64,000 nucleotides of DNA from Nitrososphaeria archaeon (GCA_050011875.1 JBEKIG010000015.1:56084-120083), one strand, 5' to 3'; shown: positions 6,582 through 64,000, counted from the first letter of the stretch. Notes: generated from the letters alone by a model not told the origin. Translations and numbers: made by a program.

Positions 6582-6680
6582 TGGACCAGGCGGGATTCGA
6601 ACCCGCGACCTCACGGATGCAGTCCGGAAAACTTCTTTGGAAGTCTTTAACCGTGCATTCTACCCCTGAACTACCGGCCC
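6582..6680 (-). tRNA. tRNA-Ala(TGC) with 27-nt intron at position 33/34 (6622-6648)
   Basis: GGGCCGG/CTGGTCC acceptor with G3:U70; TTCGAAT T-loop; removing the intron gives the loop TT-TGC-AT; relaxed BHB motif. Confidence 0.88.
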
Positions 6681-13519: not shown

Positions 13520-13608
13520 TGGCGCCGGGAGTGGGACTTGAACCCACGAGTCCCGTGAGAGACGCAGGGTTAGCAACCCTGTGCCCTACCTAGCTGGGCG
13601 ATCCCGGC
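13520..13608 (-). tRNA. tRNA-Ser(GCT), CCA encoded
   Basis: Long variable arm; anticodon loop TT-GCT-AA; ends GCCA. Confidence 0.93.
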
Positions 13609-13664: not shown

Positions 13665-13985
13665 AATGGCGATAGACCCATTTGAGTTCGCGCCTAAACA
13701 GGGCCTATTAATCCTATCCAATCCCCCACGTAGACGTGGCAGCGTGAATGCCCCACCTTAGGACTGCTCCCTCCCGGACCTCGTCCAGTTCGATGGCTCA
13801 AAGTCAAAACCCCCCCTTCGGAGAGCTTGCTTTTTACACCCACCCACCACGGCGCGGGTTCGTCTTGGAGTTGGACTAACGGTTTCCTTGTTCAAGCGTT
13901 TTACCAAATGGTTGCTGACCTCCGTTGTAGCCGGCTACGGAATGAATAGGAGGCGGCTATTCTCCCGATCCTACCTATCGCCATT
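13665..13985 (-). ncRNA. ffs: archaeal SRP (7S) RNA
   Basis: Terminal helix ATGGCGATAG/CTATCGCCAT; helix-8 motif GAGGTCCGGGAGGGAGCAG; about 320 nt. Confidence 0.9.
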
Positions 13986-17691: not shown

Positions 17692-18066
17692 TTAGATGTA
17701 CCGTTTAATTAGAGAAGGAAACTCTTCTAAGTGAAGGACAGAGCCGCCGCCGATTTTATATACCTCCTTTCTATACCATAAATCATATTTTATACCTCTT
17801 ACACTGAACTTCGATACCAACCTCTTACAGATAGACCAACCTTCCCTATCATTATCAACCAATATTATGACCTTTGAGTAGGAACGAGCCAACTGAAAAA
17901 GGTCGACGTGATTTGATTTATGGCTGTATAAATATGGCTCCCCAACCACCCCTAACTCATCTAAGGCTTTCGCATCGTTTGGTCCTTCAACTACGATCAA
18001 CGCATTGCTCTTGATTTCATCATTAAGGGCCTTTATGAGGTCAATAAGCCTTTCTAGTTCAACCAA
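17692..18066 (-). CDS. small TOPRIM-domain protein
   Basis: IVVEGPND and ILVDNDREG. Start moved to TTG at 18066 because the upstream 38 codons overlap the structured RNA. Confidence 0.8.
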   Translation of the reverse strand: MVELERLIDLIKALNDEIKSNALIVVEGPNDAKALDELGVVGEPYLYSHKSNHVDLFQLARSYSKVIILVDNDREGWSICKRLVSKFSVRGIKYDLWYRKEVYKIGGGSVLHLEEFPSLIKRYI

Positions 18067-18094
18067 CTTTTTTCTGCTGAACTTTGGTCGATTA

Positions 18095-18262
18095 GAATGT
18101 ACCCCGCCTCTGAACGGTTTTGGACCATCTGAGCCTTGTAAAGGCATTTCACCAAACCTCTTTATGCGGGGCTTTGACATCCGTCTGTTGCGTCGCTGGG
18201 TTAACCCTATGCATCATTAGATCAGCTAGGGCCGTCGCCACGCTTTTACGACGGATGTCAAC
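18095..18262 (-). ncRNA. putative two-motif box H/ACA pseudouridylation guide RNA targeting 23S rRNA
   Basis: Two hairpins with internal pockets; K-loop CTGA...ATGATG; ACA box 14 nt after each pocket; pockets antisense to 23S at 60570-60587 and 61236-61248; TATA-like box at about 18283-18290. Confidence 0.75.
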
Positions 18263-18308
18263 CCTCTGAAACGACCTGATAGGATAAAAAGTTTTCTTAA
18301 TCATTTCA

Positions 18309-19946
18309 TCATTTCGAAAGTAACTTTGTCAGGTTGATTTCTAGTGCGGTTACAGGATTTCTTAAGGAAGACTGAGAAATGTATAGAGGGGACACCTCTC
18401 CGAGTACGCCGATATATGCGCCATCCTCGTAGATCGAGGCGCAGCGGCCGCTGATAAAGTAATCGTGTGATGAAGCATTCATCTTACAGTTCTTTACTCC
18501 CAAGTAATCAAGGATTGAAAAGGCGGTCGATTTAATTTCCGTAAACGTTGTCTCAGAATGAGATATCATAGAGGATACCTTAACGTTTTCTACTATTTCC
18601 TGACCTCCTTCCCTAAGTTCGAAGGAACGCCCTATCTCAAAAATTTTCTGAGGATACTGTTCATGAACGTTCGATGATAGTGTCTGCAAAAGTTGGGGGA
18701 TAACGGAACATCTGAGTACATTGTATTCTTGTGTCTTAGAGTACTCTACCTCTATCAGCGAAGACGAAAAAGGCTGCTGTAGTTCTTTATTTGAAAGATA
18801 AAAGTTCATGACTTCTATGAATCCTAAACCGATCAGACAAAGACGGACATCTTCAACCTTTTCTTTGGCTTTCAATGGCTTACCCTGCTGTGGCAGACGA
18901 AGTTCAAGCGGAGTGATTTTATCGTATCCGTAGCCGTAGCCAACCTCCTCTATAAGGTCAACTTCATGTAAGATATCGATTCTATACCTTGGAACGGACA
19001 CCTCTATCAGGTTTCCTTTCTTTAAAGAGCGCATGTTGACCTTTTTCAGCAAATTTATCGTTTCATCAAAATCTGTCGTAACGCCTAAGATTCGTCTTAT
19101 TTCGTCAATTTTAAGGTACATTTTTTTCGGAGCCAACACTGGGCTCTCGAATGATCTTTCAGGTCTGACTATCTTTATCTTATAGACAGAAGCACCGTAG
19201 TCTATTAAGGTTGTAGCCAGCAAGGCCAGCGCATCCTCAACCGGAGAAAGCTCGGTTCCCGTTACGTCGACAAAGAGGTTATTGGTTCTTTCGGTCAGAA
19301 CTGTTACATTTCCATTGATTATCGGCGGGAGTGAGAGAACCTGATCCAAGGAGTCCTTCAATATCGGAAAAATGTTTTTTAAAGAAAGAAGGTTTCCATA
19401 ATGAACACCCTGTTCCGTCTGTTTTAAGATTTCTTCGACTGACAAAGGGGAAGTGCCATTTAAGGGTGTAAACTTGAAACCTGCATTTTCAGTTGTGTAA
19501 TAGATTGGTGGAACTATTCTTGACGCATCATGTAAACCTATGGCAAATTTTCTCCTTTTTCTCCCAATACCGTTGTGAAGGTCTTCCTGGAAGGATATGA
19601 GCTCCTTCAGGATAGATTCGGAGAAATCTAGCTTAGCAAACAGTCCAAGTATATACGGTCTAATCGCTTCTACACTCTTATCTACATTTACTCGGATATC
19701 GTAAGCTGGTAAATCGTATTCCACCTTCGTCTCTTCTCCAAAGTTAAGATAATTCAATGCCTTAGCGATACCGGCAGGAGACCCATAATCGGGACGATTT
19801 GGGCTGTATTCGACCTTGACTTCGTCATTATTCGAGTCTTCGATATCTAATCCGATATAAGGTAAAAGCTCTAAGATTTGGCCGCTCGAAAGAGACTTCT
19901 TTAGGAATGAATTAAACCTGTCGTATCTAATAGTTAGTACGGGCAT
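18309..19946 (-). CDS. pheT: phenylalanine--tRNA ligase beta subunit
   Basis: EYSPNRPD, QEDLH, SLPPIING, YRIDILHEVDLIEEV. Confidence 0.96.
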   Translation of the reverse strand: MPVLTIRYDRFNSFLKKSLSSGQILELLPYIGLDIEDSNNDEVKVEYSPNRPDYGSPAGIAKALNYLNFGEETKVEYDLPAYDIRVNVDKSVEAIRPYILGLFAKLDFSESILKELISFQEDLHNGIGRKRRKFAIGLHDASRIVPPIYYTTENAGFKFTPLNGTSPLSVEEILKQTEQGVHYGNLLSLKNIFPILKDSLDQVLSLPPIINGNVTVLTERTNNLFVDVTGTELSPVEDALALLATTLIDYGASVYKIKIVRPERSFESPVLAPKKMYLKIDEIRRILGVTTDFDETINLLKKVNMRSLKKGNLIEVSVPRYRIDILHEVDLIEEVGYGYGYDKITPLELRLPQQGKPLKAKEKVEDVRLCLIGLGFIEVMNFYLSNKELQQPFSSSLIEVEYSKTQEYNVLRCSVIPQLLQTLSSNVHEQYPQKIFEIGRSFELREGGQEIVENVKVSSMISHSETTFTEIKSTAFSILDYLGVKNCKMNASSHDYFISGRCASIYEDGAYIGVLGEVSPLYISQSSLRNPVTALEINLTKLLSK

Positions 19947-25447: not shown

Positions 25448-25470
25448 TTTTTTTCACTTTTTTACTGTAA

Positions 25471-25589
25471 GGCGCCAGCACCACTGCTTCGCGACGGCTT
25501 CTGCACATCACTAACGCAATGGCGTGATATGGTTTGACTTCTGGGATCTGACGAGACCAGGTCGAGCCCATAACACTATGGCCGGCTAA
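25471..25589 (-). rRNA. rrf: 5S rRNA (unlinked from 16S-23S)
   Basis: GCCGGCCATAG...ACCTGGTCTCGTCAGATCCCAGAAGTCAAAC...GCTGGC; about 120 nt; ends approximate. Confidence 0.88.
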
Positions 25590-25680: not shown

Positions 25681-25810
25681 GGGGCTGTCGTCCAGCTAGG
25701 GAGGACAACGGGCTCCAGAACATATATGGTATATTGACTACAAGGATGATGTAGTTTTGGAGCTGGGTGAAGAAACCCGTAAGCCGTGGGTTCAAGTCCC
25801 ACCAGCCCCA
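25681..25810 (+). tRNA. tRNA-Trp(CCA) with 56-nt intron at 37/38 (25719-25774)
   Basis: Anticodon arm ACGGG-CT-CCA-G[intron]A-CCCGT; canonical T-arm and acceptor stem. Confidence 0.92.
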
Positions 25811-60121: not shown

Positions 60122-60242
60122 TTTTATAGAATTACTTCTAAAAGAACAATTATAATATATACAATAGAAATAGGAAATGTATTCATAAATAAGCGTAGGA
60201 CATTTTTTATCGTGCATAGATTTTGCGGCCAGAACAGTATTC

Positions 60243-63325
<3,083 letters not shown>

Positions 63326-63328
63326 ATC

Positions 63329-63363
63329 AGGAATACTATTCTGGCTGTCGCAACTATGCACGA
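63329..63363 (-). other. 5' arm of the pre-23S processing stem with bulge-helix-bulge (partner arm at 60210-60243)
   Basis: TCGTGCATAG-TTGCG-ACA-GCCAGAATAGTATTCC pairs with GGAATACTGTTCTGGC-CGCA-AAA-TCTATGCACGA. Confidence 0.8.

Positions 63364-63471: not shown

Positions 63472-64000
<529 letters not shown>

Follow-up and report, generated by a model that had tools for sequence, protein, structure and literature searches.

A putative two-hairpin H/ACA guide RNA with predicted targets in 23S rRNA, conserved in the class Nitrososphaeria

The locus described here very probably gives rise to a real small guide RNA that has not been catalogued before and is conserved across the class Nitrososphaeria. 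It occupies positions 18097-18260 on the minus strand of the window, i.e. of the whole 64,000-nt stretch of DNA that was analyzed, and we hold with high confidence that it specifies a stand-alone, two-hairpin box H/ACA pseudouridine guide sRNA, about 165 nt in length, for which targets are predicted in 23S rRNA. The host is, to judge by the relatives of its PheT, a Nitrososphaeria (thaumarchaeal) MAG from peat, and the best DNA matches are found in peat and soil metagenomes. Nitrososphaeria include ammonia-oxidizing archaea, which rank among the most abundant microbes on Earth. A guide RNA at this place had been proposed in a first-pass annotation of the same DNA, and that interpretation is largely upheld by the anatomy of the RNA, by covariation, by the protein genes present in the genome and by contigs from RNA libraries. 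Over this region, Rfam 15 returned no family at gathering thresholds and no H/ACA family even at E values up to 10. The RNA represents a family absent from Rfam 15, and with a covariance model at hand it can be annotated throughout the class. A literature search yielded neither an H/ACA guide RNA nor an rRNA pseudouridine map for Nitrososphaeria, a weak result as the string 'H/ACA' cannot be matched and earlier predictions may exist.

Architecture of the RNA

The fold and the covariance model termed R1, which scores the copy in the own genome with 195.5 bits, both delineate an RNA composed of an outer helix (P0), a first stem-loop (SL1) with its ACA box and a second stem-loop (SL2) followed by another ACA box. 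The minimum-energy fold (-67.7 kcal/mol, z = -4.27) reproduces P0 and both hairpins, and none of 200 shuffled sequences is equally stable. In this single-sequence fold as well as in the RNAalifold consensus, SL1 and SL2 each appear as a hairpin with a lower stem P1, an internal pocket and an upper stem P2. The elements listed in the first-pass annotation can all be read off the sequence where it had placed them. Its two motifs are present and its pockets correctly located; as written, however, the pockets share 1-2 nt per side with the top of the lower stem, and the 11-bp outer helix was overlooked.

SL1 (18190-18243, minus strand like all parts of the RNA) is backed by sequence, fold, RNAalifold and covariation. 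Its P1 (GCGUGGC/GCGACGC, 18243-18237/18196-18190) contains one G.G mismatch and leads into a pocket with GACGG (18236-18232) as the 5' and UUAACCCA (18204-18197) as the 3' strand. P2 (CCCUA/UAGGG) together with the K-loop CUGA-UCUAAU-GAUG occupies positions 18231-18205. Past a bulged A, P2 continues with G-C, C-G and U.U and then with two sheared G.A pairs (G18223/A18222 with G18215/A18214) that close a 6-nt loop, amounting to a canonical K-loop. ACA box 1 (18186-18188) belongs to the internal loop that separates P1 from P0, 14 nt from A18201, the last base pairing with the target.

SL2 (18102-18171) is backed by sequence, fold and the class-wide alignment. It consists of P1 (CCCCGC/GCGGGG, 18171-18166/18107-18102), a pocket with the strands AUAAAGA (18165-18159) and GUUCAGAG (18115-18108), P2 with one bulge (GGUUUGG/CCAAAACC, 18158-18152/18123-18116) and a K-turn, in which G18150 and A18149 face G18126 and G18125, topped by a short distal stem (18145-18143/18135-18133); ACA box 2 lies at 18098-18100. 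The K-turn is correctly positioned within P2, but its second sheared pair, normally A.G, is replaced by G.G. Throughout the class, the 5' GA is found in 29 of 30 aligned rows and the 3' UGA in 27 of 30, with the window among the three exceptions. The K-loop/K-turn is thus fully formed in SL1 and in the family, and weakened in SL2 of the window.

According to Majumder et al. (PMC7075261), archaeal H/ACA RNAs obey a spacing of n+15 ± 1 between target and ACA and carry the K-turn or K-loop at positions 9-10 of P2. In both stem-loops of the window RNA, the last base to pair with the target is followed by 14 nt before the ACA begins, in line with the 14 nt given in the first-pass annotation; in SL2 the count starts at a base that is a paired G in relatives and part of a U.C mismatch in the window. 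The tenth position of P2 is the distal sheared pair in SL1 and SL2 alike. All features of H/ACA membership that are open to computation are present, and the identity as a guide is supported because every testable feature of an archaeal box H/ACA RNA was found.

The outer helix encloses SL1 and its ACA box. Its 5' strand (UGACAUCCGUC, 18250-18260) pairs over 11 bp with a 3' strand (GACGGAUGUCA, 18175-18185) that doubles as the hinge between SL1 and SL2. Two-sided changes affect six of the 11 pairs in an alignment of the window's family and all nine modelled pairs class-wide. The textbook archaeal H/ACA motif has no helix directly after the ACA box, unlike the arrangement here, and we know of no described H/ACA architecture in which an outer helix ties the 5' end to the hinge, with the ACA left in an internal loop. 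P0 may have a role in defining the RNA ends or in stability, and it might also act in end protection, processing or RNP geometry; the read-length contigs from RNA libraries described below stop short of the P0 5' strand. A bulge-helix-bulge processing motif or a further K-turn in the internal loop between P0 and P1 was considered and rejected, the loop being 6 x 4 nt in size, rich in A and devoid of G.A pairs.

A BRE/TATA-like element (AGAAAAC plus TTTTTAT, 18284-18297, minus strand) precedes the RNA, some 25 nt ahead of the base at which pairing begins. The TTTTTAT box at 18290-18284 is the TATA-like box already pointed out at that distance in the first-pass annotation, and in all nine members of the family the same alignment column holds an A/T-rich box. 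Judged by its sequence, the element may well serve as the guide RNA's own promoter, and the 5' end of the RNA was provisionally placed from the promoter spacing.

Predicted targets in 23S rRNA

The window contains a 23S rRNA gene (60239-63333) and the 3' part of the 16S rRNA gene (63472-64000), both on the minus strand and identified with Rfam. With 3095 nt, the 23S rRNA exceeds the 2987 positions of the archaeal Rfam model, which implies insertions of about 100 nt. The two sites for which the first-pass annotation had claimed antisense complementarity in 23S rRNA, 60570-60587 and 61236-61248 on the minus strand, were recovered exactly as proposed. Position equivalences given in the following are based on alignment to the annotated 23S rRNA of E. 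coli.

The site matched by SL1 resides in the peptidyl-transferase loop. Here, AACCCA(GC) would pair with 23S positions 2747-2754 and (C)GACGG with positions 2759-2764, giving 6-8 plus 5-6 bp (11-14 bp) and exposing U2755 (position 60579, E. coli U2586), which is the last U in the UUU following GGG, as the predicted pseudouridine. It falls in the region around E. coli 2584-2586 that had been named before. Four nucleotides (UAGA) stay unpaired in place of the canonical two (UN). According to work cited in the introduction of PMC7075261, more than two residues of a pocket can be left unpaired (De Zoysa 2018), and 8 bp of pairing between guide and target suffice.

SL2 is directed at helix 69, where UCAGAG would pair with 23S positions 2086-2091 and AAGA with positions 2095-2098 (6 plus 4 bp, and 7 plus 4 in relatives), such that U2093 (position 61241, E. 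coli position 1921) is presented. Helix 69 had been named correctly; the target uridine, however, is located on the 3' strand of the helix and is not one of the classical pair 1915/1917. The single mismatch that had been noted in this duplex is real: it is a U.C beside the target U, at which relatives have G-C. A target scan that requires unbroken pairing beside the U misses the helix 69 site due to this mismatch and returned only wobble-rich matches of 9-10 bp for SL2, and patterns derived from the class consensus were used instead. The scan of 16S rRNA covered its 3' 529 nt, up to the point where contig and window both end, and the genome-wide pattern search covered every assembled contig. 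On both strands of the 2.64-Mb genome, the family-specific SL1 target pattern occurs once, within the 23S rRNA. The looser SL1 pattern of the class occurs four times in the genome and the SL2 target pattern twice, one of the latter matches being in 23S rRNA. Every pattern match outside rRNA is contained in an open frame of 419-1097 codons, with no tRNA nearby. In five genomes from four other families, all of those inspected, the two target stretches have the same sequence as in the window. Where families carry CACCCAG in the SL1 pocket, the second U would be mismatched, and the target uridine could be the equivalent of either E. coli 2585 or 2586. A side observation concerns the 23S rRNA of one member of family f2 (locus L058, G010:C1), which is interrupted by about 395 nt at positions 657-660 of a query comprising window positions 60500-61320, i.e. 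some 70-80 nt 5' of the target site in the peptidyl-transferase center; an rRNA intron or an expansion could account for the interruption.

Some of these features would also fit an RNA that is genuinely part of an H/ACA RNP and yet is an orphan or acts on something else, be it as a chaperone of rRNA folding or by modifying a neighboring nucleotide or another RNA. The SL1 pocket is atypical in leaving four nucleotides unpaired, other families would mismatch U2754, SL2 of the window combines a mismatch with a degenerate K-turn, and adjacent uridines can be modified under atypical pairing, as shown by Majumder et al. (PMC7075261). We nevertheless judge this improbable: both complementarities are nearly unique in the genome and fall into 23S rRNA, both stem-loops comply with the n+15 rule, and the pockets stay invariant throughout the class as the stems drift. 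In addition, PMC7075261 reports the SL1 site as a proven H/ACA-guided pseudouridine in Haloferax and, citing De Zoysa 2018, allows for pockets with more than two unpaired residues.

A guide RNA directed at the two 23S sites finds its closest counterpart in sR-h45 from Haloferax. Compared by targets and order of stem-loops, and from the published description in PMC7075261, the window RNA is a functional analogue of sR-h45: in both, the 5' stem-loop serves the peptidyl-transferase loop and the 3' stem-loop helix 69. SL1 of sR-h45 forms Psi2605, which corresponds to E. coli U2586 and is the same nucleotide that SL1 of the window is predicted to address; in Haloferax it is found two residues past m3U (m3U2603), the equivalent of position 2619 in Haloarcula. 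In both SL1 elements, two A residues of the pocket 3' strand pair with the two U residues preceding the target, and both RNAs share K-turns with sheared G.A pairs and an ACA/ANA after each stem-loop. Differences have to be stated as well (same source). sR-h45 is about 200 nt long, possesses an H box and has a linker of 56 nt, whereas the hinge of the window RNA is the P0 3' strand. SL1 of sR-h45 leaves the typical UA unpaired as opposed to UAGA here, and its SL2 leaves UNUN unpaired and produces Psi1940/1942, the equivalents of E. coli 1915/1917, whereas SL2 of the window would modify position 1921 on the other strand of helix 69. The H/ACA sRNAs of Pyrococcus (Pab/Pf) share the architecture of P1, pocket, P2, K-turn or K-loop and ACA; they contain one to three motifs per RNA and their targets are concentrated in 23S domains IV and V, and pseudouridine sites are reported to be poorly conserved between archaeal orders (Muller et al. 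2008, PMC2377435).

The 3' strand of thaumarchaeal helix 69 resembles that of eukaryotes in having U at E. coli position 1921, where E. coli has G. The equivalent of this position is, we presume, one of the helix 69 positions that are pseudouridylated in yeast and human. Yeast helix 69 contains four pseudouridines according to a review (PMC7991803). Eukaryotic H/ACA snoRNAs differ from the window RNA in featuring an H box and Nhp2 and in lacking a K-turn. Two precise predicted pseudouridine sites emerge, one in the catalytic center and the other in an inter-subunit bridge. The combination of a guide for the peptidyl-transferase center and one for helix 69 in a single RNA, found in Haloferax and now predicted in a distant archaeal phylum, bears on the age of these modifications.

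Conservation, protein machinery and traces in RNA libraries

When a 221-nt query was compared with 61 related genomes by BLAST, the element was found in 10 of them (own genome included) with 73-98% identity, and it is present in eight of the nine other genomes of the window's family. A 19-nt match in one further assembly (L010 in G023, E 0.006) was regarded as spurious and left out of all alignments. In the resulting family alignment of nine sequences, 92.7% of the pair cells are paired compared with 33-44% when the partners are slid against each other; 11 pairs exhibit two-sided changes, and not one of 500 shuffles attains the covariation score. RNAalifold independently arrives at the same helices. 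The two-sided changes within the family are all confined to P0 and SL1, SL2 being almost invariant there.

Under strict filters, R1 matched 34 of 151 genomes of the class and thereby eight of 12 families (f1, 8/9; f2, 3/9; f5, 11/81; f6, 4/8; f7, 1/17; f10, 2/2; f11, 3/3; f12, 1/3); among these 151 genomes, no matches came from f3 (0/14), f4, f8 and f9. The matched assemblies include the complete genomes G016, G034, G025 and G116. The class alignment of 31 R1 matches is fitted to the model and biased toward the model's structure; in it, 92.4% of the cells are paired as compared with 31-45% in slid controls, and two-sided changes occur in 34 of 39 pairs, among them all seven of SL2 P2. As there are no two-sided changes in SL2 within the family, covariation of this stem-loop derives solely from the class alignment. 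The guide elements, in turn, hardly vary: in SL1, GACGG is kept in 24 of 25 rows and ACCCA and ACA box 1 in 25 of 25 each; in SL2, UCAGA is kept in 29 and ACA box 2 in 30 of 31 rows. Invariant pockets and ACA boxes combined with drifting stems are, as far as alignments can tell, the pattern expected of a guide RNA. The first-pass annotation had made its reading dependent on such conservation, and both pockets and structure are indeed kept in relatives, with covariation.

A phylum-wide model search matched six of 151 genomes, four of which belong to the window's own class. In the approximately 131 genomes outside the class it produced two weak matches, one a convincing SL1 with P0 (L059) and the other unconvincing (L060). 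This scarcity reflects the limited sensitivity of the model and not absence of the RNA. Some loci depart from the two-hairpin layout. In three loci of f2 (L023, L032 and L039) and one of f6 (L040), SL2 alone was matched, directly upstream of a Toprim gene and dnaG, with neither pheT nor a match to SL1 (E ≤ 0.01) within 1.5 kb, which suggests that some families have single-hairpin versions or carry the two guides separately. Two loci of f11 (L027 and L031) contain an extra insert between SL1 and SL2, pointing at a variable hinge length in this family; in the model alignment of L027, SL2 is placed inside a long insertion.

The genome encodes the protein partners of an H/ACA RNP, all matched by Pfam above the curated cut-offs: TruB_N/Cbf5 (PF01509, 78.8 bits), Nop10 (PF04135, 79.6 bits), Gar1 (PF04410, 33.9 bits) and L7Ae (PF01248, 106.7 bits). 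The Cbf5 candidate, in a frame of 346 codons, is the only TruB_N protein in the genome.

Parts of a 1.6-kb stretch around the RNA are represented in 24 sequencing runs, two of which are metatranscriptomes that carry two different study codes and stem from the same year and habitat. Each of the two provides a single contig of 151 nt on positions 18097-18244, which is read length and as such conveys nothing about ends, strand or level. These contigs end 1 nt past ACA box 2 and are about 97% identical to the window (four differences), indicating a related strain as their source. Elsewhere in the 1.6-kb stretch, pheT, the Toprim ORF and the beginning of dnaG, as far as sampled, are free of metatranscriptome contigs, and DNA contigs from two other samples cross both boundaries of 18097-18244. 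We take the RNA-library contigs as a weak hint at expression of the guide RNA.

From these components, the following course of events can be proposed, with assembly and catalysis as in the established H/ACA mechanism (introduction of PMC7075261). Transcription of the RNA would begin just downstream of pheT and be driven by the guide's own BRE/TATA element. L7Ae would bind SL1 at its K-loop and SL2 at its K-turn, and Cbf5-Nop10-Gar1 would settle on each lower stem and its ACA box. Each open pocket would then pair with 23S rRNA, and the U that stays unpaired where the upper stem begins, U2755 (E. coli U2586) presented by SL1 and U2093 (E. coli position 1921) by SL2, would be isomerized by Cbf5. 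The pseudouridines are inferred, as are the assembly of the RNP and the precise ends of the RNA.

Gene context and overlap with a Toprim ORF

The upstream neighbor in the window is pheT, encoding the beta chain of phenylalanyl-tRNA synthetase (18309-19946, minus strand, Pfam), and among 22 loci inspected, there are 16 in which pheT directly precedes the RNA. On the other side lies a small ORF (17692-18147, minus strand) with a Toprim domain (Pfam, E 5.6e-10 at amino acids 50-117). A Toprim gene and dnaG follow the RNA in eight of the 22 loci, which belong to families f1, f2, f6 and f10. The ATG of the Toprim ORF at 18147-18145 forms part of the SL2 apex and is kept in all nine family members, three of which offer no other in-frame start ahead of the Toprim domain. 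On these grounds, translation of the Toprim gene in the window's family probably starts inside SL2, and a coding sequence and an RNA would overlap over the first 50 nt of the ORF (to 18098, about 16 codons). The first-pass annotation had spoken of an over-extended ORF. This holds for the start of the longest ORF at 18180, an ATG kept in only four of nine family members, but not for the invariably kept start at the SL2 apex. The overlapped 50 nt are probably constrained mainly by the RNA. Inside the RNA, the entropies of the three codon positions are flat (0.38/0.43/0.47); just downstream of it they become coding-like (0.86/0.54/1.19, then 0.51/0.34/1.17) and indels are in frame. The probable overlap of a guide with a coding start, together with the 4-nt pocket and the enclosing P0 helix, makes this RNA a source of natural variants for the study of the H/ACA mechanism.

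The overlap brings up the question of translational control. Positions 18149-18160, comprising the 5' strand of SL2 P2 and the K-turn (AGAGGUUUGGUGA), resemble a Shine-Dalgarno sequence with complementarity to the 3' end of 16S rRNA (...GGAUCACCUCCU) and sit just upstream of the AUG conserved in the family. L7Ae-binding K-turns are known from archaeal mRNA leaders. As in these, the K-turn in the window's family is placed beside an ORF start, which L7Ae binding could occlude; as opposed to these, it belongs to a complete H/ACA stem-loop that is also found where there is no ORF. One could accordingly regard the element as a cis-acting leader of the Toprim-dnaG operon, in which a K-turn over the start codon exerts translational control and the likeness to a guide is secondary. 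The position of SL2 directly upstream of or overlapping with the Toprim ORF in eight of 22 loci from four families would agree with such a role, as would the GGUGA of the K-turn strand adjoining the AUG in the window's family and the lack of a T-rich terminator after ACA box 2. We consider it very improbable all the same. In f5, the RNA is present with no Toprim gene adjacent to it and is followed by an unrelated ORF of 146 amino acids (L026 1708-2148, G016), which shows that it is not a Toprim-specific leader; in f5 and f11, no Toprim gene occurs within 1.5 kb of the two-hairpin RNA following pheT. SL1 is unrelated to the ORF, a leader would need neither ACA boxes at n+15 nor invariant pockets antisense to rRNA, and the RNA-library contigs stop 1 nt past the ACA and do not extend into the ORF.

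A leader role could coexist with guide function. Taken further, this would be a dual-use locus with a class-wide P0 clamp and with SL2 physically coupled to the Toprim-DnaG operon in four families, such that RNP assembly and translation are mutually exclusive. The Shine-Dalgarno-like GGUGA of the SL2 K-turn and the start codon are both located inside SL2 in the window's family. We deem this scenario conceivable, albeit rather unlikely. If it were true, L7Ae on the K-turn and Cbf5 on the ACA would compete with the ribosomes that translate an RNA-processing operon on one and the same transcript, and the capacity for ribosome modification would be linked to expression of the exosome-associated DnaG.

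Conservation of the element could in principle also result from protein coding, the RNA structure being incidental to an N-terminal extension of the Toprim protein, given that a frame is open from the SL2-apex ATG in all nine family members and yields similar peptides with in-frame indels downstream. As a sole explanation, coding is already contradicted and deserves next to no credence. The frame covers only the 3' third of the element, and the codon positions vary equally inside the RNA (0.38/0.43/0.47), unlike downstream of it. Of seven loci in other families, five do not permit a start of the Toprim frame inside the RNA; there it begins 19-70 nt or more past the RNA. Finally, f5 has the RNA without the gene, and compensatory changes occur in 34 of 39 pairs.

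The hallmark of box C/D sRNAs are terminal C (RUGAUGA) and D (CUGA) boxes around guides of 10-12 nt. The CUGA...UGAUG motif and a weak Rfam match of the K-loop to the C/D family sR49 (18.8 bits, E 0.19) might bring a methylation guide of this type to mind, an idea of negligible probability that is contradicted by the anatomy, since terminal C and D boxes are absent, the motif caps a 5-bp stem in a hairpin with a pocket, as the K-loop of an H/ACA RNA does, and the score of 18.8 bits compares with a gathering score of 50. Further sub-threshold Rfam matches to ceN44 (plus strand, 18272-18332) and snoZ102 (18253-18311) are regarded as noise.

Elsewhere in the window, Rfam identifies a 5S rRNA gene with no linkage to the 16S-23S operon (25470-25589) and a gene for the SRP RNA (13670-13980). 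Matches to tRNAs at 25681-25810 (plus strand, 130 nt), 6582-6680 (minus strand, 99 nt) and 13523-13608 (minus strand, 86 nt) point at intron-bearing tRNA genes.
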